A DNA stretch of 64,000 nucleotides from Phoronis australis (lineage: Eukaryota; Animalia; Phoronida), in assembly GCA_002633005.1 (NCBI GenBank), contig NMRA01000854.1:1-64000 (forward strand), given 5' to 3'. The first letter of the stretch is position 1; every line of letters starts with the position of its first letter. Both the position numbers and the translations under genes were made by a program. The notes beneath the pieces were generated by a model. That model worked only from the letters and a program-made list of their open reading frames with translations, was not told the origin of the DNA and ran no database searches. Shown here piece by piece: positions 9,072 to 49,188 of this stretch.

Positions 9072-10142
9072 GACTGCTAGAGCAACCTTTTGTTAAGCCT
9101 AGATTGCATACCGCTCAAACGACTGAATGAAACGGCCAACCACAACTGGTCACTATTCACTGTTAAAGATGTCCCATAATAAAACTAGAAGGTTGTCGGA
9201 TCCGTGTTACGACACAGATCTTAGATGGCGAATTTACGTGGAATTTTGGAAGGGAAAGAAAAGTCTTTGTGTTCGAAGTTGAATCAACACTTTGTTTGAC
9301 CGCATTGAAGCACTGAACAGTTACGCTGCAGCCACAAGGCATTTGCTGGTCCGACCTTGTATAGAATTTAAATACAGGGGATATGACAGGTTTGGCGTTT
9401 GGTTTGAGGAATATGTTGAAACTGGTTTGCTTGTGCTTTTGAATGAGAAAAGTCATTTTTTTTGCCATGACCAACTTTTGATGCAAAATGGTGTCTAAGA
9501 AACCGACCGGGTGCGATTTCAGGTGGCTGGCAAACAGATGAAAGTTGTGCAAAAGGTAGCTAGTAAGGGGGTACTATATGACCACATTTATAGGGTTACA
9601 GTTTAGAGAGAACGCGCATTCTGAATCTGTAGTCAGATTTTTTCTAGCACTAGTAGTGGTGGGGGGAGAAAACTGTAATTCGATGTTTTGGTCCTATTTT
9701 TATGCGCTCGGATTTTGTTCCGGTGTGAATTAACCGATTGAAACTCTGGAGCATAATTAAGTTTCAGTTATCATGAGTAGAGCCCCATCCCTAACCCTCC
9801 CCCAGCCCCTATGGTGCCCCACCCATGTGGTAAGGACCCGTCTCCACCTGCTTGTGCCTCGGCAGTAATAATTGTTATGTGCCTCCTAACGTATAACAAG
9901 TGTATCGTGCATGCGCCGCCACGTGACCTTCTGGACATCATCATGAGATTAACTGTCTCCCCCCGCCCCCCAATTTGGCAAAGTGGACAAAAACGTCCGC
10001 CTCAGAGAAACAAGTCCGAGATAACGAGACAAAAGCCCACTAAAAAGGCAGGAACTACCGAAATTCGGTGAAACCGATAATTTTTCGTCCCCCATGAACG
10101 TACCTCGTTGTTATAAAGGTCACATTCCCAAAAATTCGAGCA

Positions 10143-10883
10143 CCCTTATTTTTAGGCTGGGTACGCGCATGGAGCATACAGTACTTTGCATGATTTAAGA
10201 CTTATTGTTGCTGGATGGTGTCGTTGTAGCGCTGCGAATGCCATATATATGGGAAGCCGGTATATAAGGTAATCCAGGCTCTGATTCAGAGAAACTGACG
10301 ACACTCCGATCATCCAATACACTCGTAACAAGAGGCTATGAAAGGCCCAGCTCGGTATGTTTGAGTCTATTAACTTATGATCGGTCTAGCTTGCAGTACT
10401 AACGCTCCTCGTACGCCTGACTCACTCACCCTAACTCTATCCCCTTTTAAGTTAAAGCTCTACAGTGCAGCTCGTCACGCTTCTCGTCGTTAGGTGCACT
10501 CAGATAATCATTTNACCCTTATTTTTAGGCTGGGTACGCGCATGGAGCATACAGTACTTTGCATGATTTAAGACTTATTGTTGCTGGATGGTGTCGTTGT
10601 AGCGCCGCGAATGCCATATATATGGGAAGCTATATAAGGTAATCCAGGCTCTGATTCAGAGAAACTGACGACACTCCGATCATCCAATACACTCGTAACA
10701 AGAGGCTATGAAAGGCCCAGCTCGGTATGTTTGAGTCTATTAACTTATGATCGGTCTAGCTTGCAGTACTAACGCTCCTCGTACGCCTGACTCACTCACC
10801 CTAACTCTATCCCCTTTTAAGTTAAAGCTCTACAGTGCAGCTCGTCACGCTTCTCGTCGTTAGGTGCACTCAGATAATCATTT
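10143..10883. repeat. ~370 bp near-identical tandem duplicate split by a single n (probable assembly/haplotype overlap)
   Basis: 10143-10513 is repeated at 10515-10883 with very few differences; n at 10514. Confidence 0.85.
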
Positions 10884-11960: not shown

Positions 11961-12275
11961 CAGTGGCGGATCTAGGCATGATATCATAAAGGGGGGGGGC
12001 AACAATCCGAAGATGACGTCGGCAAAGCGTGCTTGTGTTTGCAGCAGAGACCCGAAAGTTGCGGGGACCGGTCTTGTAACCCTTCTGTTCAGAAAATCTG
12101 CTGTTGGACTAAAATTAAAAAAAACGGGAACGNNNNNNNNNNNNNNNNNNNNNNNNNNNNNNNNNNNNNNNNNNNNNNNNNNNNNNNNNNNNNNNNNNNN
12201 NNNNNNNNNNNNNNNNNNNNNNNNNNNNNNNNNNNNNNNNNNNNNCCCCCCCCCTCCCCCCTAAATCAGCCCATG
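11961..12275. mobile_element. hAT-like non-autonomous element spanning the assembly gap
   Basis: cagtggcggatctagg...ggggggg left end and ccccccctaaatcagcccatg right end; gap at 12133-12245. Confidence 0.45.
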
Positions 12276-12867
12276 ATCCCGTTAGGCTACTATAAAATCT
12301 GGTTGAGTGAACGGCCTACCGTCTCAGGGCTCCCCAGCCAGTGACTCGGTTTGGCACTGCCAATAGGTGGCAGCTTCCTCGACTCATTGAGACGTTGAAC
12401 TCTTCTCCAAGTGGGCATATGTAGCTTAGCGTAGCCCTTCGGCTCGAGTCGTATATGGGGCTGACTAGACTGTTCTTTGCGATCTTAGGCCTGTTCGAGG
12501 TTGCACAAGTTATAGACCTGCCGTCTCCACGCTCAGAACAGAATAAATACTGAGTCAGTGAGTGGTGGTTGACCTCTGACATTGACTTTGTTTTCACGGA
12601 ATTGCCCAAATAATGTCCCAACCTTTATTTTGTAATCTGTAACAGAATGTTGTGATTTAACTTGTGTATGCACCATAGCTTTTCAGGTTGATTTTAATAC
12701 CTCAAATATTCCAGAAAAAAATTGAATTGGGAGATTGTCTGGTGATACTCCAGACCAGATTGTAAATGTTGTTAGCATGTATTTCCATTTCATTTGTCAC
12801 CGTGTATATTCTTACAATGTTGCTGCTTTACATGTGTTGTTAGATTGTCTTGATTTTCTTGTAGGAA

Positions 12868-15800
12868 ATGGCAACTGAAAACAACATGAAAGAGTCTGTG
12901 GCATCAGCCACGAAAAGATATTTTGTGGCCAAGTGTTTTACCATTGACAGTCTGAAGTCTTGTCAAAGGTCATCCCTGTGGGCATGTAAGGTTAGGAACA
13001 ATCCACCCCAGCCAAAAGATATACTAACAGAGGCATTTAACAGATGTACAGAGGTGATTCTAGTCTTCAGTGTTAATAACTGTAGCGGTTGGCATGGGTA
13101 TGCTACCATGGTAACAGCACCAGAATCCTCTAGTACATGTGATGAGGGAACAAGACCTTCTGGAATTCAGGATTCAGCCAGTTGTAACCGGTCTCCTTTT
13201 CTGGAAGGTATTTGGTATACATTCAAAATCAAATGGAAAACTCTGTTCCTGGATGAATTTGGTGAACAGTGTTTGTCCTTTAGGGACACTAAAGATTTGG
13301 TAACTACAGATCCACTTGTTGGTGTCAATCAAGCCAGGAACTTTGATGAGCTGTCACTTAAATCTGGTAGTCAAATTTGCCAGTTAATTGACAGTCAGTT
13401 TTCAACATTTGTGGCATTGAAAAATGATAAACTTCAGAATCAGTTGGATCAGAGGCCGAGGCAATTTCTTGACATTGCTGATATTCATCAAAGCATCGAC
13501 CAACTGTGGAAAGCAGTTTTGCAAAAAGTTGGAAAACTTGGTCAGATACTTGTCGCATGTCCATTTGGAAGTCATAGGCAAGTTTTGTTTCATCTTTAAG
13601 CAGTGACCTTATTTTATGTTTTCTTGGTCTACTTCCAACCAGTTTTGAATAATTGCCAAACTGCTAAAATCCCATACAACAATAAGCAAGTCAAAGGTGT
13701 CATCTTCAATGTTTGAATAAATCAAGTCTGTAATATACAGTACTGTACGCACAAAAATAATTGCCAAAATGTTCATGTGTCATTTTTCAATGGCTGATTG
13801 TCCTAATTAAGTATACAAATGATGGGAACATTATAAAACTAACGTTGTTTTGTGACTTGAACATACATGGACTGCAAACCATTTTAGTAATGCACTAAAA
13901 TATTCTTTATTCTTGTGTAAAAATTTTATTAAAATAGAATAACAGTTGTCAGCCATATTGTGTGCTAAATAAGTGACGAATTGGAGGAAATTTTGAAGCT
14001 GTCCCTTTAGTATGGCTTCAAAGTGGCATTGGCCTGCTCTTGAAAGGATGCTAAACCCCGTTTTGGTTATTTCAACCAATTCTCATTCTGCCATCATCTG
14101 CATCCCATCTGAGAGATTAAAACAAGATTCATCTGATATACATACCCTCTGTGTCACATATTGGATATTGGTAGGAGGTCTTTCCCTACAGTTGTCGTGT
14201 AACTCGCGTAGATCACGCTTGTCGAATTAGCAGGCTTTGTAAGAAATTTTCATATCTTGCTCCAAGTATTTGAGGGTTGTCAAGGGTTACAGGCTTCATT
14301 TTGTTTCAGAGAATTAAATGTGAAAGTTGTTTCAATATCTGTTCATATCCTTTTAACTCTGCTAAGTAAGGTATAAACAGCAACTGTACTAATTCAATTT
14401 CAAAATATCCTACACTACACTTACTAATCTGCATGCACCAGTCTTTAGGCCCATACAGCCAAAATAATGCATTTACCAAAGGAAAAAGTGTGGCCCTAGT
14501 GTTTCTCATGTAGGTTTATACACTGAAGCTTTGCAGCTGTTCCTTGCGTTAAACTGTATATTTTGGGTTTGTCAATTTTTACTGTCATTTGTACCCGTCA
14601 ATGTGGACTGTTTTGTAAGTGCTGTTTAGTGCTGTTTTAGTTAATGTTCTCTCAGTGTTACTCTAGTGGTTCACATAAAGGTGCGTACGGCACCTAATTC
14701 GTGATGAAAATAGGTGCATGTTTGCATGTAGACACATGGGCCTAAATAAATGCACACACAGTAATTTGTGGTGTGAGCAAAAAAAGAAACAACCTGTGAA
14801 GGGATGTCTTTTACATCATTGGTGTGTCTCGCGGAAATATGGGACCACATCACAGTCGGTATTTTCTGGACACTAGCCAATGTTGATTTTCTCTGGACGT
14901 TTTTTTCCGCGAAAGTCTCTCTTAAAATCATTTTTCTACTTGCATATGTCATGCCACATTCAATTCAAAGGAGCTCATTTAAAGCGCTGGTCTCATTTTT
15001 CAAAATTAATCTGTTGTTGACAGCTCATAAAGATCTTCGACATTCCACAACACAACATTGCATTTTGACTACAATAATCCTAACATCTGAATGTTTCTGT
15101 TTTATCCCACTCATCACAATAACTTTCATACTCTATTGTATTGTGAAAGTTGTGTTATATTTTGAAGTCTCTGATCTGAGGTGACACTGATTACATAATT
15201 ACATAGGGATGTATTGAAGTGCTTGACTGAAATCGAATAAGGCATTGGACATTCCAATTAAGCAAACAGTACAATATCTGTGTAGCTCTTCTACAGTATT
15301 GTTCTTTATGTTAAAAGATGGGCGTTATTTTGGTGTGAAACGTTATTTTTCTTTAAGTCTCCATCCACATTACAAGTGAACTGTAGGTTGTGTTGAATGT
15401 TGTCCACCAAGGGTTCTGTCACCATTTAGCAACACAATTTATTTAACACAGTTAAGCTCATAAATAGTTTGTCAAACGAGTGACAAGGAGGTGGCGGTTG
15501 GGTATCTGAAGGACAGTAAGGATTGTCCTCTAGTGGTCACTTATAAGGGTACTGCATTTTGAGAACCTGTTTTCTTCATTCAATAATGGGCATCAAACTG
15601 GTACTCCAAATCCAGGATGCCTGTTACTGTAAGTGACTGTCCATCGAGCTGCCCAGTGGACAGAATCATACATCAGCCATCACTGGTTGATCATAAAATA
15701 GCTGTGCATTCAATCTTTCATTGCTTAGCCTTGTGTTACAGCGCACTATCCGTTATCACCATAAATGTTGCACAAGAGCCAGTTGTAGTAAATTATTGTC

Positions 15801-18800
15801 AGGGTTTATGATGATACTAGGACTTGTTACTAACATGTTCACTGGCCACTTTTACAGGTACAACCTAGCCACTCCTGACAGTGACACTGACATGTTTGTA
15901 GTTTATGCAGCTCATACATCAGACCTGCTGGGATTCAGCCCTCCTCCTCACACTATTAAGGTGAGTATTACTCTTGATACTGCTGCAGGGTATATAGCTG
16001 TTATTCACAGCTAGCTGGCTTGACTAGGATGGTGTATGGTCTTGTGCCTCCGTATGCAACTGGACAACTTACAACTTAAGTCAGTTCAGTCTGAACGCAG
16101 AGGTCATTCTGAGAATATTTAAACCCCTGAATTCAGTGACATGTAAATTTTACCTCCTGTTGGTTTCAACTCCAGACTGCAGCGGTTCTTTAATCAAGGC
16201 TAAATTTAGCCAGCCAGCTCGCTGTATGAAGACTATCGTCAAAATACAGCTAGGTACCACTGTATGTTTTTCTTCCATAGACCCTGAAATTGCATACAGC
16301 CAGGGTAGTTCTGCTCGTCAACTCGTCGTGAAACCTGAATCAGTATGTAGAGCTAAAGACCGGACAGGGTCCATGCAAAGTCTGGGAATCAAACGATGCT
16401 CACAATTCCCGTTACAGGCATTTAAGTGGTAAACAATCTAATAAATGTCATTTTCTTGCGTAATCCTCTGCCTTTTCTAACGAAGGAAAGTTATGTCGTC
16501 ATTTTGAAAACAGTACGCTCGTGACACGCACACGCGTCATTTCCTAAATTTTTGCGACCTCTCTCTCGAGAGATGATGATGATGATAGCTTGGCAGCAGC
16601 AAAATTTCTTCTGAAATTCGATTTTTCGGTATCAAAATTCTAAAAACTTATAATGAAGTGAAATCAGCTCTGATAATTTGTTATGACATGTACGGAACCT
16701 CGTGAAAGAAGATCAGTTGGTTGAAGAATTGTCGAAAAAAAGAAATTGGCCAATAGGCGATGCAATATTTCAAAGTGGCGAAAGCTGTCGCTAAAGTTCG
16801 ATTTAACCGTTCAACTCCACCATTAGGTACTGAAAAGCCAAATTTTTGATGATTGCTAATTTCTAGATATGCCAAAAACCTACATTGTCTCTTGAATGTG
16901 CAAGTGCATAACTTACTATTCGTATTCATGCTCACATGGTTGTTTTCTTATTTCTTTAGAATCAAGATACAGAGTTTCAGGACTATACTATTTTAGAGGT
17001 ACGCCGCTACTGTGAGCTGCTGATGTCTGGGGACCCTCGTTGTGTGGAGACCTTATTCCTCGATTCGTCAGTGATCTACCACGAGTCAAAGCAAATGGCT
17101 GCTCTCCGAAAAGACAGAGGTCACTTCTTGAACAAGTAAGTTCCAATCTTGTCAATTAAATTTCTATAAAAGAATGGAGTCTTTCCAGAGTTTTCAGCAA
17201 GCCAGTCCAGTCGAGTATGTGCTCACTGGTGGCATGCAAAGAAAATTTTATGAATTTATTCCCGGTGTGGTTACTCGGGGGGTGGGGGATTTACACTGTC
17301 AAACCCTAAAGCTTTCCCCAGTGTCATAGAAAATAGACACCTTAAATCTTAACCAAAAAAACAGAAAAGTTTCCACAACAATCTTTTCATGATTATTTAA
17401 ACAAATGATTCTGTTTTTAGTACTTAATTGGGGAGAATGTCCCATGAGTGTTCTGTTAGAGCTTGCTACACTATCAAAACACCTTTTCTTTAATTTGGCA
17501 TTGCCAATTGTGTATTTATTAGCTTTTTAACTGGATTTCACTTACTTCACTTATGGTTGTCAAAGTCTTATCTGCTTGTATACTCGGCCACTTGTTTGAG
17601 ATAAGTGATGGACAGATGTTAGGGTAACAAATTAAGCTTGGTAGAAGTAAGTACAGTAATGGAAAAATAAAGTGTTGTCAGACAAAATACTGCTTGCTCA
17701 TCATGACAGCTAAATTCTGTTACAGCAAACATGTCAGAGGAATGATAATCACTTTTATGGTGGCAGCACTTTATAGATTCGGAATGGATAACCCATTTCG
17801 CCAACGTTTCCGTAAATTTCTCATTCTCATTCATGAGAAGACTACTATGACAATCAGTGTGGTCTTACCAGAATGTTTTGGCATGTGCTGTAGCAAGGTA
17901 TAAATATTGTCTCACTCCTGTTGGAGTTGTGGTGAGGCTGTAGTTGTGGTATAAAGGCGTAAGTCATGAGAATAAACTGAGCTTACAATTGTGGTGATAG
18001 TAAGCCAGAGTTTATCATCACAAGTTAATCGTGGGTATTTTATCCAGAAAGCGGCTCAGGTTAGAAATGTGACGTCATTGGAAGTGGGGTAAAAATCCGC
18101 CTTGCTACTATGACACAAATATTCATTAGTCCACAATTGTTTCGTATTCTAAGCATAATGCAAGGGATGATTCTATGAAGAATCAGAACTACTTTGATGT
18201 AGAGCTGTTTGACTCTAGAGTTGAAAACAATTCCTTGACTGCACTTAAAATTCCAGGTACGATTCTGTGTGGACAAGCGCAGGTGAAACCTGCTCTACAA
18301 AATCCCTAGACTCACACCTCTTGAGTTCCACTTGTGCACCGAAAGTGCTCCGTACACTATGACCAAACTTCAGTCCTAGGGACCAGATTCCAAGGGGACA
18401 GTTTTAGTCCATAGCTGGAATTTAGAGGTGTGACCATGGAGTCTGGTCCCAGGAACTGGAATTTGGTCATCATGTGTGGTGCATTTGTGAATTTTAGGGT
18501 TGCATGTTTAAGGATTTCTTGAGCGGGTTTTGGATTTGCTGGTCCAGGACTGGAGTGAGATTGCAGCTGTTATTTAGAGAGCGGTGATGCAATTGTTTCC
18601 ACCCCTTATCATTTTCTTCAACTCATTGTTTGCCATCTCTCATATATGAAGTCTGGTACCGACGCAGACATTGTAAAAGTTTTTGTCAATTATATTATGG
18701 CATGGCCATCATTGTGCAGGCTGTGGCATTGATATGATATGGCTATTATTGTACAGGTTGTGGCACTGATATGTTATTGCTATTATTGTGCAGGCAGTGG

Positions 18801-21800
18801 CACTATTGTGATATGGCTATTATTGTGCAGGTTGTTGCACTTGTATGATATGGCTATTATTGTGCAGGCATGGCATTGATATGATATCGCTATTATTGTA
18901 CAAGTTGTGGCACTGATATGATATTGCTATTTTTGTGCAGGCAATGGTACTGATATGATATGGCTATCATTGTGCAGCTGTGACACTGATATGTTATGGC
19001 TATCATTGTGCAGGCTGTGACACTGATATGATATGGCTATTATTGTACTGGTTGTGGCACTGATATAATGTGGCTATTATTGTGCAGGCTGTGGCACTTG
19101 TATGATATGGCTATTATTGTGCAGGCATGGCACTGATATGATATGGCTATTATCGGCAGGTTGTGGCGCTGATATTATATGGCTATTATTGTACAAGTTG
19201 TGGCACTGATATAATATTGCTATTATTGTGCAGGCTGTGGCACTTATGGCTAATATTGTACAGGCTGTGGCACTGATTTGATATGGCTATTGTTGTGCAT
19301 ACTGGCACTGAATGAAATGAGACTACTGTCATTTTCTGTCATTAAATAGACATTGATTTGGTTCTGTTGAAGACTTTGCCTGGAAAAGTATTTGAGAGAT
19401 GCAACAGGAGCACGAGGCTTGAAGCAGATAGAGAAAATACATAAAGGTTCCTCTACCAAAGGGTCCACCAAACTGAATAAGCTGTTTTATATAGTCATTA
19501 GACTCTTGCAAAACGCACGGTGAGTTTGAATTCTTGCATTGTATAATGGGGTATTTCTTATAGCCTTTGTGCTATTTAGATATCATAAACAACACTTTGC
19601 AATTGTTTCCATTATGTGCAGCTAGGAAATCAGTCTTTGAAAAAGAGAAAAATTAGAATTTTGGCAATTATTTTTGTGCAGATTGGAGTTCTTTTCAAGA
19701 AGAGAAGTTTTACAATGAAATTGGTCGAAACTTGTTTTGTGGATGAGAAGTTATTTCTGGGTTACTTTGTAATTAACTTACAAATCGTTATTTGTTGAGA
19801 TCATGCTCAGCATGTAAAATCACGTGACATGACAAATCAATTTGTAGAGAGCCCGATCTCAAGCAATAATCAGAGGCGGATCTCAGGTGGTTTACCCCCC
19901 CCGCATAGAATTAAATTAAAAAATGTCGCCAGGAAAACCAAATCAGCTGCAAACACCAAAGAAACCTACCGACCTTGTAATTTGAAACCGTATCCAGTTT
20001 GCCTAAGGAATAATTAGAGGCCAATTTTATGACTAGAGTGGTTAAGTCAAAAGTTGACTGTTGCAGTGAAAAGCTAGCTTAAAGCTGTTTTAAGTGAACA
20101 GTCAAGTTCGTTTATGGACTGTTCTATTAATTAGCATAGTGTGCACATGCAAGCACCATAGGATACTAATGGTGATTACCCACCTGTTTTGTGGAATTTC
20201 AATCTGGGGGAATGCGAACTTAAATAGCCATCGCAACTTTTCTCCTAAGTTTAAACTAACTCTCCAGCAACAGTGCATGTTCTCCGTTGGAAGCTTTTTA
20301 AGGCCACCATCATGTCAGACACAATCAAGTACTTTTAAAAGCTGAACATTTTTTACCGCTGCAGTCATCCTCAGAATGGCTAGGTGGACATGAAGTCATG
20401 CGATGACGTTCTCGCCTTTATTAGGGAAGCTGTCGAAAGCGTCATGAACTGTGACGTAGGTCAGTAACCCTATTTCTGGCATTTATTTACGTGATGCTGG
20501 TTTATGCTCACAATGTTTCAATAGAGAAACTAAAAATGAAGAGGTGAATGTTAAGTTCAACATGGTTGTCACTAAGACTTGTTTAGAGCCCTGGGCGATA
20601 CATCTGATTTGGATGTTACTTTGGCGTGTAACAGTCGAATATTGCCTGCAATCATAAATGGATATTTTATCATTTTGCAGAAATATTGCCATGAAGGAAG
20701 ATCTGACAGTTTTCCGACCATATGGCTCAAAAGATCGAGACTTGCTTATGTCAGTAAGAAAAGGAGAATTTGGATATGAAGATATGAAGATTATGACAGA
20801 TAGGTGAGTGNATTGTGACAGATAGGTGAGTGCACTAGATTATGGCAGATAGGAGAGTGCACTAGATTATGACAGATAGGTGAGTGCACTAGATTATGGT
20901 AGATAGGAGAGTGCACTAGATTATGACAGATAGGTGAGTGCACTAGATTATGACAGATAGGTGCATGCACTAGATAATGACAAGATAGGTGAGTGCACTA
21001 GATTGTGACAGATAGGTGAGTGCCCTAGATTATGACAGATAGGAGAATGCACTAGATTATGACAGATAGGTGAGTGCACTAGATTATGACGGGTAGGTGA
21101 GTGCACTAGATTATGACAGATAGGTGAGTGTACCAGATTTTGATGCAAGTCTTTCTCACTGAACAGCCAGTAAGGGTTATCTCCTATTGTTTAGCAGACC
21201 ACGCGGTACGGCAAAAAGGGATAATTTTGGCAAACAATATTTCATTGTCACAAGGTGTTTAAGTATGATTACTTTATTTTTATTTCTGTGCAGTTGTGCA
21301 GATAGTCTGTTGTAATGTTTTGAACATGAATGTTGAATTAAAGACTGTACACAGTTACTACCTTTTCACAAGAATGTACAAAAAGTTTGCGTTGGGGAAG
21401 TACATTTTTACTTGTAGTCTATAATTTTGACGTCTCATGAATAGCGATTCGAAATAACGTATTTAGCGTTTCTTGATATCAGAACAAATTTGTTTTGTTT
21501 ACGTTGTCTTTGCACAGTAAACACCAACACTGAATTTATAAGCATCCTCACAGCTTATATTAACTGAATACTGGCCTATAAATATGCCGATATCCACTTT
21601 CGGAGGAACAGAAAAGCATTATCTTTTGTGCACTCGTGAAATTGACAATTGTGAGCAGTCACTTGCGCATAGCTTGAACTTGGTGTTTTAACTTGCAATC
21701 AGAGAAAGTTTAGTGATTAAAATAATATTTCTTTCCTTTTCAGAATGATAGAGGACATCCAAGGATATCAAATAATTGATGAACATGTAGATTTCGGCTT

Positions 21801-21864
21801 TCTAGAACAATGGTTGCTTGACATTCGCTATAAAGACTTTGTCTCATTGTACACTCCACCTTGA
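12868..21864 (+). CDS. YTH-domain + RlaP/YcgL-like (DNA polymerase beta superfamily) nucleotidyltransferase fusion protein, 459 aa
   Basis: Six coding exons with consistent phases: 12868-13577 (GC donor), 15858-15960, 16960-17135, 19373-19519, 20681-20803, 21744-21864 = 1380 nt, open. Residues ~16-175 follow the YTH pattern (RYFVAK...SLWAC...EVILVFSVNNCSGWHGYATM...FKIKW...VNQARNFDEL...GSQICQLI). C-terminal half: FGSHRYNLATPDSDTDMF, QDYTILEVRRYCELLMSGDPRCVETLF, KLFYIVIRLL, RDLLMSVRKGE, LEQWLLDIR. Confidence 0.88.
16245..16790 (+). repeat. Dispersed repeat, second copy at ~45555-46105
   Basis: gggtagttctgctcgtca...gtgacacgcacacgcg...gcagcagcaaaa...ctgaaattc blocks are shared in the same order in both copies. 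Confidence 0.75.
18695..19310. repeat. Minisatellite, ~38 bp unit
   Basis: gctattattgtgcaggctgtggcactgatatgatatg repeated about 15 times in intron 3 of the fusion gene. Confidence 0.9.
20788..21140. repeat. Minisatellite, 27 bp unit derived from an exon 5 / donor junction
   Basis: agattatgacagataggtgagtgcact about 13 times; the first unit is the real exon end; n at 20811. Confidence 0.9.
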
Positions 21865-22151: not shown

Positions 22152-22440
22152 CCACTGCACATTCTGTGTCCATATCAACACACTGCATATTTTGTGTGCA
22201 CATCAACACACTGCACATTCTGTGTGCATATCAACACACTGCACATTCTGTGTCCATATCAACACGTTGCACATTCTGTGTCCATATCAACACACTGCAT
22301 ATTCTTTGTCCATATCAACAGGTTGCACATTCTGTGTCCATATCAACACACTGCATATTCTGTGTCCATATCAACACGTTGCACATTCTGTGTCCATATC
22401 AACACACTGCATATTCTGTGTCCATATCAACACAGTGCAT
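22152..22440. repeat. Minisatellite, 29 bp unit
   Basis: cactgcacattctgtgtccatatcaaca about 10 times. Confidence 0.9.
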
Positions 22441-24338
22441 AAGCACCAGAAAGTGGATAGGAATCCCTGAAATGGTGACGAAGCTATGCCATGACAATAA
22501 TCACTTTCATCAACTCGCAATTTTCCAGTCATATAAACTATGCTTGACTGCTGGTGAAATGTGTTCTGTACTTAGTTATCAACCATTTTGTTGAAGTAAC
22601 CTCTCAAGCAATTAAGCCTGAAGAAACTGGCCTAAATTCAGCTAATATAAATATCTACGTTTCTTTCTGCATGGGTTGACAAAATTCTAGAAAATTTACA
22701 ATTTTCATGGAACTTTTGTACAAAGGTACATTTAACCAGCAAAATGCCTTTGTTGATCCAGTTAGAATATAATGTGTAGTCTTTTATTTAATAAATAGTT
22801 GTGAGCCCCTATGGTTGCCTGGAGATTTCACGAGAATATAGCAACTTTCATTAAAATTTTAGCCAGTATAGCTCGGTAGTAGCCCTTCGTATACACAAAC
22901 TTCGTTTTTAAAGACACTAGACTTTTTGTTAGCGAGCTTGATACTGGTACGTTCGTAATTTCGGGAAAAAGTCTCCTTTCTTCTGGTGTGGAGGAATGAA
23001 GTAACAAACCAAGAGACATAACAAATAAAAAAAAACAGTAGCTCATTGCTATATTTCGTGACTTCATGTCACGCCATCAGGCCAAGAGTGGAATGATAAT
23101 ATACAGAGCGAAATAAACGGTGAAATACACGTGACAGCATACAAGCAGAGAGCGTTAATGCAACACGGTAGAAAGCCCGCAACTCTAGTTCGCACTCGCT
23201 CTGTTTCTTAATCTTGGTATTTTTAAATGTTTCAAGCTTGTTTATCAAGTTTCAGTGTACCTTTGTGTCGCCAGAATCACACTTTTAAACCTTTCACAAA
23301 CTTGCTAAAATCATCACGCTAGAGTTTTTGCTAGCATTTTCGCCAGCACTAAAACACCAGTAGGCCCTAATGNATCAACACACTGCATATTCTGTGTCCA
23401 TATCAACACAGTGCATAAGCACCAGAAAGTGGATAGGAATCCCTGAAATGGTGACGAAGCTATACCATGACAATAATCACTTTCATCAACTCGCAATTTT
23501 CCAGTCATATAAACGATGCTTGACTGCTGGTGAGATGTGTTCTGTACTTAGTTATCAACCATTTTGTTGAAGTAACCTCTCAAGCAATTAAGCCTGAAGA
23601 AACTGTCCTAAATTCAGCTAATATAAATATCTACGTTTCTTTCTGCATGGGTTGACAAAATTCTAGAAAATTTACAATTTTCATGGAACTTTTGTACAAA
23701 GGTACATTTAACCAGCAAAATGCCTTTGTTGATCCAGTTAGAATGTAATGTGTAGTCTTTTATTTAATAAATAGTTGTGAGCCCCTATGGTTGCCTGGAG
23801 ATTTCACGAGAATATAACAACTTTCATTAAAATTTTAGTCAGTATAGCTCGGTAGTAGCCCTTCGTTTACACAAACTTCGTTTTTAAAGACACTAGACTT
23901 TTTGTTAGCGAGCTTGATACTGGTACGTTCATAATTTCGGAAAAAATCTCCTTTCTTCTGGTGTGGAGGAATGAAGTAACAAACCAAGAGACATAACAAA
24001 TAAAAAAAAAACAGTAGCTCATTGCTATATTTCGTGACTTCATGTCAGGCCAAGAGTGGAATGATAATATACAGAGCGAAATAAACGGTGAAATACACGT
24101 GACAGCATACAAGCAGAGAGCGTTAATGCAACACGGTAGAAAGCCCGCAACTCTATCGCACTCGCTCTGTTTCTTAATCTTGGTATTTTTAAATGTTTCA
24201 AGCTTGTTTATCAAGTTTCAGTGTACCTTTGTGTCGCCAGAATCACACTTTTAAACCTTTCACAAACTTGCTAAAATCATCACGCTAGAGTTTTTGCTAG
24301 CATTTTCGCCAGCACTAAAACACCAGTAGGCCCTAATG
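22397..24338. repeat. ~970 bp near-identical tandem duplicate split by a single n (probable haplotype overlap)
   Basis: 22397-23372 is repeated at 23374-24338 with scattered SNPs and small indels; n at 23373. Confidence 0.85.
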
Positions 24339-35769: not shown

Positions 35770-43639
<7,870 letters not shown>

Positions 43640-47040: not shown

Positions 47041-47802
47041 TATATTCCATTGTTGTAAAAGTGGTTATACCACATTGTACTTTCCATAGTTGTAAAAGCA
47101 TCTTGTGCATTGCACTGGTCAACTACAGGAATGTCCACATATTACGGCATCCACCACTTTTTACCCTCTGCCGCCTATGTCATCACCCGCCATCGTGATA
47201 TAACCCCCCATACATCATCACAGCCAACCCCCTCCCGCATTTAGGCAGTAATTGAATAGGTTTGTCATTTGTCTATAGATGTTTACGGGTAAACCTTGGA
47301 AGAGTGAAACGACTGGTCCCATTCTGGAATTAGTTAATTCCCCTTGAAGGTGAACCAGTTTCCCAGTGATATATATTGTGATGGAGATATTTTAATAAAC
47401 CACATGGTGATGTCACCATTAATCTAATCCCCCATCATAAATCGTCATCTTTTCCAAACCTCCTCCCTCCCGAGTATTGACGTAATCCGTGAGTATTCTC
47501 TAACCACAGGGACCAAACTATTGACCCTGACATGAGAGCTTTAGCTTTCAGATGATTGGCAATGTTGCTGATTCCTTAATACCAGTACAAAAGAAGGATT
47601 CTTTTGAAAAATAAACTTATTATGGAATGATACCCCCCCTCTCCCGTTGAGTACTTGCTATGATTGACTAAACAATGTTGGTGGTTAGTGACTCAAAATA
47701 TGATGTTGAGAACTGGGTAATCAATCTTCTACGTTGTGGTAGTAAAAGAAAAAAGTTAACTACACTCGACCGAACATTTTATTTTTGTCTTTCAGGCACA
47801 GG

Positions 47803-49188
47803 ATGTTCAGCAGTGTTTTCAATCGCAATTGCTACATTGCGTTCGGAACTGTAGCTCTGGCGTATGTTCCAATAGGCTACTTAGCCTACAAGTCCAAGTT
47901 GACTTACAGTGTTGGAAACAATCCTGCATTTGTCAAATTCCGGAAGGAATACTTTCTGGCCTACTTTCTTGCCATGGCTGGGGACTGGCTGCAAGGACCT
48001 TACTTGTACAAGTTGTACGCTCATTATGGATTTCTTGAAGCACAGATAGCTGTTCTGTACGTGTGTGGATTTGCTTCGACAGTCATTTTTGGAACATGGG
48101 CGCCAGCGTTAACTGAGAGATTTGGAAGGAAGAAACTATGCGTTGCCTGCATGATCATCTATGTGATAGCATGCTTGTTGACACTGTCCTCTCTCTATGG
48201 CATTCTTGCTCTTGGTCGAATTTTAGGAGGTATTGCAACATCACTGCTATTTTCTTCGTTTGAGGCGTGGTATGTGCACGAGCACATTGACACTCATGAT
48301 TTCCCAAAGGAGTGGATATCGGTAACCTTTAAAATAGCCTCATTGTGGAATGGCGTCATATCAGTGGTCTGTGGTATAATTGCTAACTTGTTTGTTGGAA
48401 GTATGCCAGGCCTTGCGGGACCAGTTTGGCCTTTCATGTTGGCCGTGCCATGTTTTATGACTTCAGCACTGATTGTACTCAAGCAATGGAATGAAAACTA
48501 TGGTCATCAGAAAGTAAATCTTAGAAAGTCGTGCATGCAAGGGTTACGTGAGATTGCTTTCAACAAGCGCATATTTCTGATGGGTGCCATTCAGGCTTTG
48601 TTTGAAAGTGTGATGTACATCACAGTGTTTTTGTGGACTCCAGTATTAGATGGTATGACGCGAGCTGATGCACCATTAGGCATCATTTTCTCCACATTTA
48701 TGGTCTGTATCATGATGGGAAGTAGTTTGTTTCAAATCCTCTCGGCCAAAAATATATCTGTGTGTTTCATATTGGCTTTTGCCATGTTGCTGGCAATGCT
48801 GTCAAACTCTCTATGTGTCATATCTACTCACAAAGCAGTTCGGGAGGTGTCTCTCAGTTTTATTTGCCTCGCTTTATTCAATACCTCAGCAGGAATCTAC
48901 TTTCCGGCCATGAACTATTTACGAGACACGATTATACCGGAAATACACAAAATCTCCATCATTGGTTGGTTCAGAGTCCCTCTCAATTTCATCGCATGTA
49001 TCGTATTGATGACATTACATAATGATAACAGCCGACATGGCAACAATGTGATATTCATTGTCTGTTCAATTCTTTGCTGTGCTGCATTAGTCTGTGTTGC
49101 CAGTTTCCGTGCTCTCTTGAGAAAATCAGAAGATGTTGCAGAGTTGATAAATCGAAACGACAACCAAGAAACTCTTATTTTGGTATAA
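47803..49188 (+). CDS. MFSD5: Molybdate-anion transporter, MFS family (single coding exon, 461 aa)
   Basis: NNPAFVKFRKEYFLAYFLAMAGDWLQGPYLYKLY, GRILGGIATSLLFSSFEAWYVHEH, WNENYG, FLWTPVL, WFRVPLN; many TM segments; acceptor ttcag at 47795, first ATG at 47803. Confidence 0.95.
   Translation: MFSSVFNRNCYIAFGTVALAYVPIGYLAYKSKLTYSVGNNPAFVKFRKEYFLAYFLAMAGDWLQGPYLYKLYAHYGFLEAQIAVLYVCGFASTVIFGTWAPALTERFGRKKLCVACMIIYVIACLLTLSSLYGILALGRILGGIATSLLFSSFEAWYVHEHIDTHDFPKEWISVTFKIASLWNGVISVVCGIIANLFVGSMPGLAGPVWPFMLAVPCFMTSALIVLKQWNENYGHQKVNLRKSCMQGLREIAFNKRIFLMGAIQALFESVMYITVFLWTPVLDGMTRADAPLGIIFSTFMVCIMMGSSLFQILSAKNISVCFILAFAMLLAMLSNSLCVISTHKAVREVSLSFICLALFNTSAGIYFPAMNYLRDTIIPEIHKISIIGWFRVPLNFIACIVLMTLHNDNSRHGNNVIFIVCSILCCAALVCVASFRALLRKSEDVAELINRNDNQETLILV

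Follow-up and report, generated by a model that had tools for sequence, protein, structure and literature searches.

The window analysed here, a 64,000-nucleotide stretch of the Phoronis australis contig NMRA01000854.1, holds one copy of a gene whose six coding exons (Table 1) splice in frame to 1380 nt encoding 459 amino acids and a stop. The original prediction had described such a six-exon reading frame, joining an N-terminal YTH domain to a C-terminal RlaP-type nucleotidyltransferase (NTase), and the splice proved to be open with the residues as first numbered. The donor of intron 1 is GC (GCAAGT), and the remaining four introns are GT-AG. Raw reads from three RNA-seq runs (X1, X2 and X3, about 18-19% of each sampled) spanned four of the five coding joints, including that of the GC-AG intron joining both domains. 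The linking joint, 13577>15858 (placed at 13575>15856, with a 3-base slide), had 2, 0 and 3 reads in X1, X2 and X3; the corresponding yields were 5, 5 and 7 for 15960>16960, 9, 0 and 13 for 17135>19373, and 4, 2 and 6 for 19519>20681. Upstream, two non-coding joints were seen, 12553>12865 with 5 reads in X1 and 12557>12865 with 3, 2 and 1 reads in the three runs. The first mate of every junction read was on the minus strand, as most stranded libraries would give for a plus-strand RNA. The fifth coding joint, 20803>21744, was absent from the junctions listed in two RNA-seq read mappings; it is supported by same-strand read cover of exons 5 and 6, by the homology of exon 6, and by a metagenome locus (L005) in which the matching exon ends at the identical codon with a GT donor. 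The tandem array in intron 5, which copies the exon-5 end and donor 13 times, may hinder read placement at this joint. An alternative exon-4 acceptor at 19350 was rejected, as it introduced stops and broke the frame, and the reads place the acceptor at 19373.

Table 1. Features of the YTH-RlaP gene and its surroundings, in window coordinates
Feature	Position	Strand	Remarks
Upstream non-coding exon	12268..12557	+	RNA-seq depth in bin 12268-12651 and junction reads; start unmapped; donors 12553, 12557
Coding exon 1, aa 1-237	12868..13577	+	YTH fold, long linker helix, NTase start with G234-S235; GC donor; junction reads
YTH-fold domain, aa 16-174	12913..13389	+	K22, W38 (12979-12981), W116 (13213-13215), R157; Pfam PF04146
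Variable loop, aa 84-115	13117..13212	+	Site of second cage tryptophan in canonical YTH; no Trp here
Coding exon 2, aa 237-271	15858..15960	+	D246 (15883-15885), D248 (15889-15891); junction reads
Coding exon 3, aa 272-330	16960..17135	+	Third acid D279 (16981-16983), E284, D296, E301; junction reads
Coding exon 4, aa 330-379	19373..19519	+	Helical lobe, invariant K366 and R373; junction reads
Coding exon 5, aa 379-420	20681..20803	+	Helical lobe; junction reads at its acceptor
Tandem array, 27-bp unit, 13.3 copies	20788..21143	+	Inside intron 5; repeats exon-5 end and splice donor
Coding exon 6, aa 420-459 and stop	21744..21864	+	W443, R448; homology; read cover

The earlier proposal had noted that, lacking the 13577-15858 junction, the locus would be two separate units. 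That the fusion is an artefact of the gene model, made of two separate genes or of contamination, is scarcely credible. The linking joint was covered by five reads in two of the three runs and uses a GC donor, and many database entries end where exon 1 ends; against this, the joint is present in RNA, and the NTase G-S motif is encoded within the YTH exon itself. Ten donor/acceptor pairs were tried for intron 1, three of which were open, and only 13577>15858 had reads and restored the family motif. Further, metagenome loci L003, L004 and L007 each have a GT intron, positioned at the same codon, and full-length fused proteins were found in over 30 named species. A scan of 10 long ORFs and one exon in the window identified MFS_5, EGF, NAP and METTL1 neighbours; these eukaryotic genes and the spliced RNA bear out the claim that the gene is not bacterial contamination. 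No RNA ligase was found among the same 10 ORFs and one exon, and no conserved neighbour was identified. Since the gene is eukaryotic, operon logic does not apply to a search for a ligase neighbour.

Both domain assignments of the original prediction held. Exon 1 matched Pfam YTH (PF04146) at E 1.8e-16 (60.6 bits, cut-off 22.1), the model of an ortholog superimposed on the YTH domain of YTHDC2 with Z 20.0 and rmsd 2.0 over 125 residues, and Foldseek returned YTHDF2 at E 1.5e-9. For the enzyme half, exon 2 alone matched Pfam RlaP (PF10127) only at E 0.16, and exons 3-6 by themselves gave no Pfam match. Because single exons match weakly or not at all, the RlaP call rests on full-length orthologs and the family HMM. 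The orthologs, at 34-45% identity, scored above both the YTH and the RlaP cut-offs; all nine relatives scanned exceeded the RlaP cut-off of 23, with 39.8-62 bits, and the family HMM matched the window's spliced protein with 313 bits. The C-terminal half also aligned with 15 short RlaP-type proteins, one of which, P0084, is a member of the fused group, over 232 columns (probability 100%, E 3e-60). The enzyme domain of ortholog P0042 was modelled with pLDDT 95.4 and pTM 0.92 as five strands, a helical lobe and a terminal helix (243-261), and this layout of NTase, C-terminal helical domain and closing helix agrees with the RlaP description in the available part of PMC12776372. In the ortholog model the linker forms a helix (156-187), and the stretch matching the variable loop has pLDDT under 50. 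The orientation of the domains is unsure because the full-length model reached a pTM of 0.62.

The predicted catalytic residues G234-S235 and D246-x-D248 and the third acid D279 were correctly placed, and none of the five varies across 48 relatives, made up of 34 animal and 14 other fused proteins. Thirteen positions are invariant when the query is added to these 48, and 12 of them lie within the enzyme half or at its boundary. Mean conservation was 0.78 in the NTase core, compared with 0.21 in the YTH lid loop.

Among solved structures, the folds closest to the enzyme half match it weakly and point away from the RlaP reading. The top solved match was HalB of the Hailong system (Z 9.1, rmsd 5.0 over 177 residues, 10% identity), kanamycin nucleotidyltransferase gave a TM of about 0.4, and the best Foldseek matches among viral structures were phage and giant-virus nucleotidyltransferases. 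No released RlaP structure was among the structural matches listed, an absence that carries no weight. HalB shares the Pol-beta NTase and helical lobe; it makes protein-primed poly-dA for a channel partner, according to the part of the Hailong review consulted, and is without a reader domain. The fused protein might be a signalling or guard oligonucleotide synthase, like HalB, cGAS or OAS, switched by nucleic acid on the YTH fold in the manner of an innate immune sensor-synthase. The HalB match speaks for this, as do the derivation of YTH and EVE domains from readers of modified viral DNA (PMC7641849, in part) and the nearest non-fused Atlas clusters, mostly phage proteins at scores of 0.75-0.76 that serve as leads only. 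We consider such a synthase unlikely, given that the HalB match is middling, that no PADLOC model scored below E 0.01, and that a gene with one copy in the window, well conserved and with a tree that tracks host lineages, is set against fast-turning immune families. Transfer of NMP to a protein or small molecule, as by MNT antitoxins, GlnE, DrrA or aminoglycoside nucleotidyltransferases, in which the YTH fold would serve only to dock the enzyme on an RNP, is distinctly improbable. The minimal NTase with a four-helix lobe is a layout common to those enzymes, and a weak MntA match (E 0.014) arose with one of six queries against NCBIfam, in which no profile fell below E 0.01; identity to those structures is 7-14%, however, and the sequence family is RlaP, whose bacterial members label no proteins in the experiments seen in PMC12776372. 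TUT4/7, GLD-2 and Cid1 extend RNA 3' ends without a template, directed by RNA-binding modules. They belong to a different NTase family, and their fold matches were weak, with E above 0.01.

The YTH pocket was compared with canonical YTH, with P0188 as the canonical reference sequence. The first cage tryptophan (W377 of YTHDC1) corresponds to W38 and is present in 34/34 animals and 11/14 others; K22, W38 and R157 are all kept in the 34 animal orthologs. The lid-loop tryptophan (W428 of YTHDC1) is absent from 35 of 35 animal sequences and from 11 of the 14 non-lophotrochozoan or unnamed fused members, and the lid loop itself is unconserved, at 23-255 residues. In P0188 the lid Trp is at loop position 10, and in the alignment a Gln stands opposite the YTHDF2 Trp. 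At the third cage position (L439, or Trp in YTHDF), W116 comes opposite the YTHDF2 Trp once a one-residue gap is allowed; a Trp near this position occurs in 31/34 animals and 5/14 others, as judged by alignment. The N367/D401 position, at which m6A-reading YTH proteins use Asn, Asp or similar to bond N1 of the adenine, is S28 here, with Ser in 26, Ala in 5, Gly in 2 and Asn in 1 of the 34 orthologs; P0188 has His, so this position varies among canonical YTH domains too. The D476 position is Asn, a five-residue R-x-x-x-P-Q-P insert follows the first Trp, and the residue next to N158 is Trp in 30/34 orthologs and Phe in the Phoronis gene.

Because the lid tryptophan is absent from all 35 animal sequences, m6A reading by the family's YTH fold is doubtful on sequence grounds, and the m6A-type reading first proposed is weakened, the N367 and D476 positions being Ser and Asn. 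A true m6A reader whose enzyme tails m6A-marked mRNAs or fragments and so sets their decay would nonetheless draw on several features: the fold scores as YTH proper (Z 16-20 for YTH domains and no more than 12 for EVE and ASCH), every animal sequence keeps the first cage Trp, a Trp lies near the third cage position in most orthologs, and the Trp next to N158, where present, could replace the lid residue. Opposed to these are the missing lid Trp, the predominance of Ser at the N367/D401 position, and the account in PMC6112328, as far as that paper was available, that m6A specificity derives from methyl-pi contacts to two tryptophans and that Mmi1 retains the YTH fold without m6A reading. We regard such a reader as fairly improbable. 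The canonical proteins (YTHDC1, YTHDC2, YTHDF1-3, CPSF30-L and Pho92) share the fold (Z up to 20.0), the first cage Trp and the K22 and R157 positions, while the fused protein differs in lacking the lid Trp, in its changed N367/D476 positions, in its insert and in the attached NTase. Mmi1 of fission yeast, which acts in trans by recruiting a poly(A) polymerase and the exosome, has the same fold (Z 17.6) and no working m6A pocket. It binds unmodified DSR RNA on another surface (PMC6112328, in part), whereas the fused protein keeps the canonical face and has its own NTase. As had been supposed of familiar animal YTH proteins, none of the five human ones has a YTH-NTase layout in the portion of PMC6112328 consulted; the same source has R475 and W377 of YTHDC1 contacting RNA.

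Of 56 homology-search matches, 39 contained both PF04146 and PF10127. The fusion was found in lophotrochozoans (oysters, mussels and Aplysia among them), a choanoflagellate, amoebozoans, a stramenopile, a dinoflagellate and Spironema; a search with an 18-sequence alignment returned three proteins only and did not widen the range. The enzyme domains of fused proteins formed one group with support of 98/83 in an LG+G4 tree that omitted six long branches (P0190, P0153, P0156, P0132, P0205 and P0177); in a quick version of the mixture-model tree the group had an SH-aLRT of only 80, and a coverage filter excluded Balamuthia P0100 from both trees. The fused-family tree follows host lineages. Pattern scans with the fused alignment, a method that detects close relatives only, found no relative among 8 candidate stretches in viral contigs or 10 candidates in prokaryote genomes. 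The idea of an animal-only or recent horizontal fusion is thus recast by the distribution and the tree, since the family spans several eukaryotic supergroups. No published account of the fusion was found in the literature searched, a scope that did not extend to Burroughs and Aravind 2016; PMC12776372 mentions a few eukaryotic RlaP proteins and names no YTH fusion in the main text seen, and its supplements may list eukaryotic architectures.

The closest enzymatic precedent is RlaP of Pseudomonas, which belongs to the same Pfam family, has an NTase with a helical lobe and three conserved aspartates, and by analogy likely has the same chemistry. As described in the accessible text of PMC12776372, RlaP labels RNA but neither DNA nor protein, requires a 3'-OH, and adds one or two NMP to it in a Mn2+-dependent, template-free reaction; the cut end of a tRNA mimic is preferred, broken tRNA is the favoured substrate, and in P. 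fluorescens and P. aeruginosa the gene sits in an rtcB-rlaP-rtcA operon. This function comes from a single preprint (December 2025) on two Pseudomonas proteins. The fused gene differs in being eukaryotic, spliced and without an operon, and in bearing a YTH fold at its N terminus along with a long linker helix. Since bacterial RlaP adds one or two NMP to RNA 3'-OH ends, addition of NMP to RNA 3' ends is likely here by analogy. Of the nucleotidylation first claimed, then, the RNA part is plausible, and a protein target is less likely, E. coli proteins having gone unlabelled with bacterial RlaP. A role at DNA ends, in which the YTH fold would recognise damaged or modified DNA, is very improbable: modified DNA is the ligand of archaeal YTH-like and EVE domains (PMC7641849, in part) and RlaP can use dATP as donor, yet in the experiments seen in PMC12776372 it failed to extend DNA, alone or in hybrids.

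We conclude that one spliced transcript encodes a YTH fold and an RlaP-type NTase with its acids intact, and that the product is likely an RNA end-mending enzyme, a reading to which we give a probability of about 0.55. It starts from the fused transcript, the two folds, the invariant G-S, D-x-D and third D, and the conservation across supergroups. The YTH fold is predicted to grip RNA, probably without reading m6A in its pocket; the conserved K22, W38 and R157 suggest that the RNA would lie on the usual YTH face, and in the model the reader would be kept away from the active site by a helix some 30 residues long. The enzyme half, if it acts as bacterial RlaP does, would extend the free 3'-OH of the gripped RNA by one or two nucleotides. 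The most likely use would be to restore the trimmed ends of structured RNAs that have been cut, tRNA halves for example, ahead of re-ligation, with marking of such ends for decay as a close alternative. The YTH fold would replace the operon, targeting the enzyme where no operon places it beside a ligase. PMC12776372 itself raises the mismatch between a 3'-OH product and RtcB, the main animal RNA ligase; such a product, if made here as in bacteria, does not suit RtcB and would count against end mending. More tentatively, the family may be an ancient eukaryotic RNA-repair enzyme, perhaps as old as the last eukaryotic common ancestor and absent from the human YTH set, whose YTH fold would have given up the m6A cage for an open pocket that reads another mark, for example a bulky modified base next to a tRNA anticodon loop that has been cut, the fused RlaP site then refilling the lost nucleotide. 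If true, YTH domains would acquire a new class of ligand, and this would be the first case in eukaryotes of an RNA end-filling pathway guided by a reader.

Novelty is limited in that both parts are known folds, automatic database names already show them paired, and function is inferred. Animal YTH proteins have been regarded as m6A readers that form a closed set; the fused family adds a further YTH class with a rebuilt pocket. RlaP, for which the December 2025 preprint gave the first assays, has been treated as a prokaryotic and phage repair enzyme, a picture broken by a family that extends from molluscs to amoebae with its catalytic residues intact. As a single soluble protein of 450 residues, it offers a route to the ligand of a cage-open YTH domain and to whether eukaryotes refill trimmed RNA ends.

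Splicing by coordinates joined the six coding exons of the fusion gene into the open 459-residue protein of the original prediction, with the residues named there. The prediction further required that the YTH exon be joined to the D-x-D exon (13577>15858), and this joint was seen in RNA-seq from three runs carrying the same species label as the window (2, 0 and 3 reads, with 18–19% of reads used). Intron 1 is of the GC-AG type, with its GC donor at 13578–13583, and three metagenome orthologs (loci L003, L004 and L007) have a GT intron at the matching codon. In all, four of the five coding joints were seen, joints 2–4 with 5/5/7, 9/0/13 and 4/2/6 reads in the three runs, and all coding-joint reads had the strand expected for plus-strand RNA; depth across the gene was low, a few reads. 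The fifth joint (20803>21744) was absent from the RNA-seq junctions listed in either read placement, and is supported by read cover, by homology and by an intron position common to metagenome locus L005. Given the joint reads, that the fusion is an artefact is extremely improbable. At 20788–21143 a 27-bp unit recurs 13.3 times in tandem, and this array repeats the final exon-5 bases plus the GT donor, forming a series of decoy GT donors. Read-through into the array hits an in-frame stop, so that full protein comes from the first donor only. Three short intronic stretches (13931–13971, 15557–15602 and 16207–16295) drew many partly matching RNA reads on both strands and are probably dispersed repeats transcribed elsewhere.

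The fusion gene is present once in the window. The genes around it are eukaryotic and encode an MFS_5 transporter, an EGF-domain protein, a NAP-domain protein (one exon) and METTL1 (one exon). The tandem duplicates listed below, each pair joined at a single N, are probably haplotype or scaffolding artefacts.

Other features of the window
Feature	Position	Strand	Remarks
Near-identical tandem duplicates	10142-10513 + 10515-10883		98.9%; copies meet at one N
Near-identical tandem duplicates	22398-23372 + 23374-24338		97.7%; copies meet at one N
METTL1-type tRNA m7G methyltransferase exon	40513-40908	minus	E 7e-21; ~19 kb downstream of fusion gene
MFS_5 family transporter	47746-49185		single long ORF

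Both predicted domains were recovered. Exon 1 matches Pfam YTH (E 1.8e-16), and the YTH cut-off was exceeded by all 8 scanned relatives whose sequence includes the N-terminus. The RlaP assignment was made through orthologs because the enzyme half, spread across five exons, gives weak Pfam scores when scanned piecewise. These orthologs share 34–45% identity with almost the whole spliced protein, and 9 of 9 relatives scanned exceed the Pfam RlaP cut-off. Structure was taken from the AlphaFold model of an oyster-cluster ortholog, P0004, rather than of the window protein (pLDDT 86, pTM 0.62). This model consists of a YTH barrel, a disordered loop, a helix of ~30 residues, a nucleotidyltransferase core and a helical lobe. 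Among solved structures it most resembles YTH domains (Foldseek E 1.5e-9; Z 20.0), and among viral proteins the nucleotidyltransferases of phages and giant viruses. Modelled separately (pLDDT 95), the enzyme half resembles solved structures only moderately, the matches being HalB (Z 9.1) and kanamycin nucleotidyltransferase. In BFVD the enzyme half matched HE65 of baculovirus as well as fusion proteins of giant viruses that bear the names endonuclease V or exonuclease; thus RlaP-like modules also occur in viruses of eukaryotes.

According to excerpts of PMC6112328, the m6A cage of YTHDC1 is formed by W377, W428 and L439, while N363, N367 and S378 bond the base and R475 and D476 touch neighbouring nucleotides. 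These positions were mapped by sequence alignment to YTHDF2 and one canonical YTH match, P0188. The first cage Trp is present (W38, in 34/34 animal orthologs). The lid-loop Trp is missing in all 35 animal sequences, which makes m6A reading by the YTH domain doubtful; an m6A-coupled tailing enzyme is an unlikely alternative. The lid loop, of 23–255 residues, is the least conserved region of the protein, and 3 of the 14 other fused proteins have a Trp in it, at loop positions 3–5, where the canonical P0188 has it at position 10. Most animal orthologs have Ser at the N367 position, and the D476 position is Asn in 33/34, followed by Trp in 30/34 versus Gly in canonical YTH. K22, H76, N154 and R157 do not vary among the animal orthologs. 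With conserved and altered positions side by side, the canonical YTH face is therefore conserved yet rebuilt, and we infer that it would bind RNA with a ligand other than m6A. W116 is one residue away from the third cage position, and W38, W116 and residue 159 may form a substitute cage.

The predicted catalytic residues G234, S235, D246, D248 and D279 are invariant when the query is aligned with 34 orthologs from animals, all full-length, and with 14 further fused proteins; partial matches were left out. Y238, S245, D296, E301, K366 and R373 are likewise invariant. As judged from this alignment, the active site is preserved intact across the fused proteins. In excerpts of a preprint (PMC12776372), two Pseudomonas RlaP proteins label RNA, neither DNA nor protein, and require a 3'-OH. 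They attach one or two NMP, discriminating little between bases and with a preference for Mn2+. On a tRNA mimic the cut end is their preferred site, and they raise the aminoacylation of repaired tRNA from which a nucleotide had been lost. With such kin, action on DNA is very unlikely, and an NMPylase acting on protein or small molecule is improbable; a sensor-coupled oligonucleotide synthase is also unlikely, if less so than any other alternative. By analogy with the bacterial proteins, the RlaP half would add nucleotides to RNA 3'-OH ends, and conservation of the YTH half suggests that it would target RNA. A weak point of the mechanism is that RtcB requires a 3'-phosphate (PMC12776372, excerpts), and therefore a 5'-phosphate ligase or an extra step would be needed.

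Both Pfam families are present in 39 of 56 homology-search matches, of which 33 carry an NCBI species name: 30 are mollusc records, and the others come from Lineus, Owenia and Lingula. Through cluster look-ups a choanoflagellate, Salpingoeca kvevrii, joined them with a complete fusion of 451 residues. An exhaustive search yielded 556 proteins with E of 0.001 or lower, and the best 150 of them were considered. Ten likely fusions among the matches listed were looked up, and nine had species names: Spironema, Balamuthia, Arcella, Stenamoeba, Pelomyxa, Flabellula, Mastigamoeba, Platysulcus and Tripos. In seven of these nine, matches to PF04146 and PF10127 both reach E of 0.001 or lower; two of these seven lie slightly below the RlaP cut-off. 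The Flabellula protein has a Pfam YTH match and a nucleotidyltransferase match by family HMM, and the YTH region of the Mastigamoeba protein is degenerate. The ESM Atlas holds a 74-member cluster, eukaryotes only, automatically given a two-domain name. The named matches include no vertebrate, arthropod, nematode, fungal or plant protein, most exhaustive-search matches carrying no name; excerpts of PMC6112328 indicate that all five human YTH proteins lack the layout. Six proteins from amoebozoans and Platysulcus (P0100, P0103, P0104, P0106, P0116 and P0211) have 1–2 additional RlaP-like modules downstream of the first, in part degenerate, and a separate group of proteins (510–645 aa) has two RlaP modules without YTH.

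An LG+G4 tree of 78 nucleotidyltransferase domains, midpoint rooted and with 6 long branches left out, placed 30 rows labelled fused, some by hand from the alignment, in a single group (98/83) with 9 rows in which YTH was not detected. By eye, these 9 show the family linker pattern and two retain a YTH-domain tail; truncation or secondary shortening is the probable explanation. The window protein falls in a 15-row lophotrochozoan group (100/97), closest to Lingula; mollusc (98/89), Tripos (100/100) and amoebozoan (94/93) groups were also recovered. The tree fits one ancient fusion, vertical inheritance and numerous losses. Against this, the rooting is by midpoint, a quick mixture tree gives the fused group support of only 80, and Salpingoeca and Spironema (P0058, P0089) pair at 99/97, contrary to species phylogeny, which suggests contamination or gene transfer in one of the two transcriptomes. 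Pattern scans with the fused alignment found no close viral or prokaryotic relatives.

Full-text literature searches, with subscription literature mostly outside their reach, returned no publication pairing YTH with RlaP or PF10127, and searches for a YTH domain with a fused nucleotidyltransferase returned only unrelated work, by title and abstract start. RlaP was reportedly named by Burroughs and Aravind in 2016, whose paper may include the YTH-RlaP architecture because the Lottia protein was already public. Neither nucleotidyltransferase nor RlaP is mentioned in excerpts of a 2026 m6A-machinery survey that includes molluscs (PMC13629450), of an EVE/DCD/YTH fusion survey (PMC7641849) or of PMC4738411. 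Excerpts of PMC10400998 and PMC6514570 mention RlaP, not the YTH fusion, and those of PMC12776372 mention a small number of eukaryotic RlaP proteins, the YTH fusion not among what they describe. The folds are known and the chemistry, by analogy, probably is too. What appears to be new is a widely conserved eukaryotic pairing of YTH with RlaP, undescribed in the literature searched, in which the reader pocket is altered.
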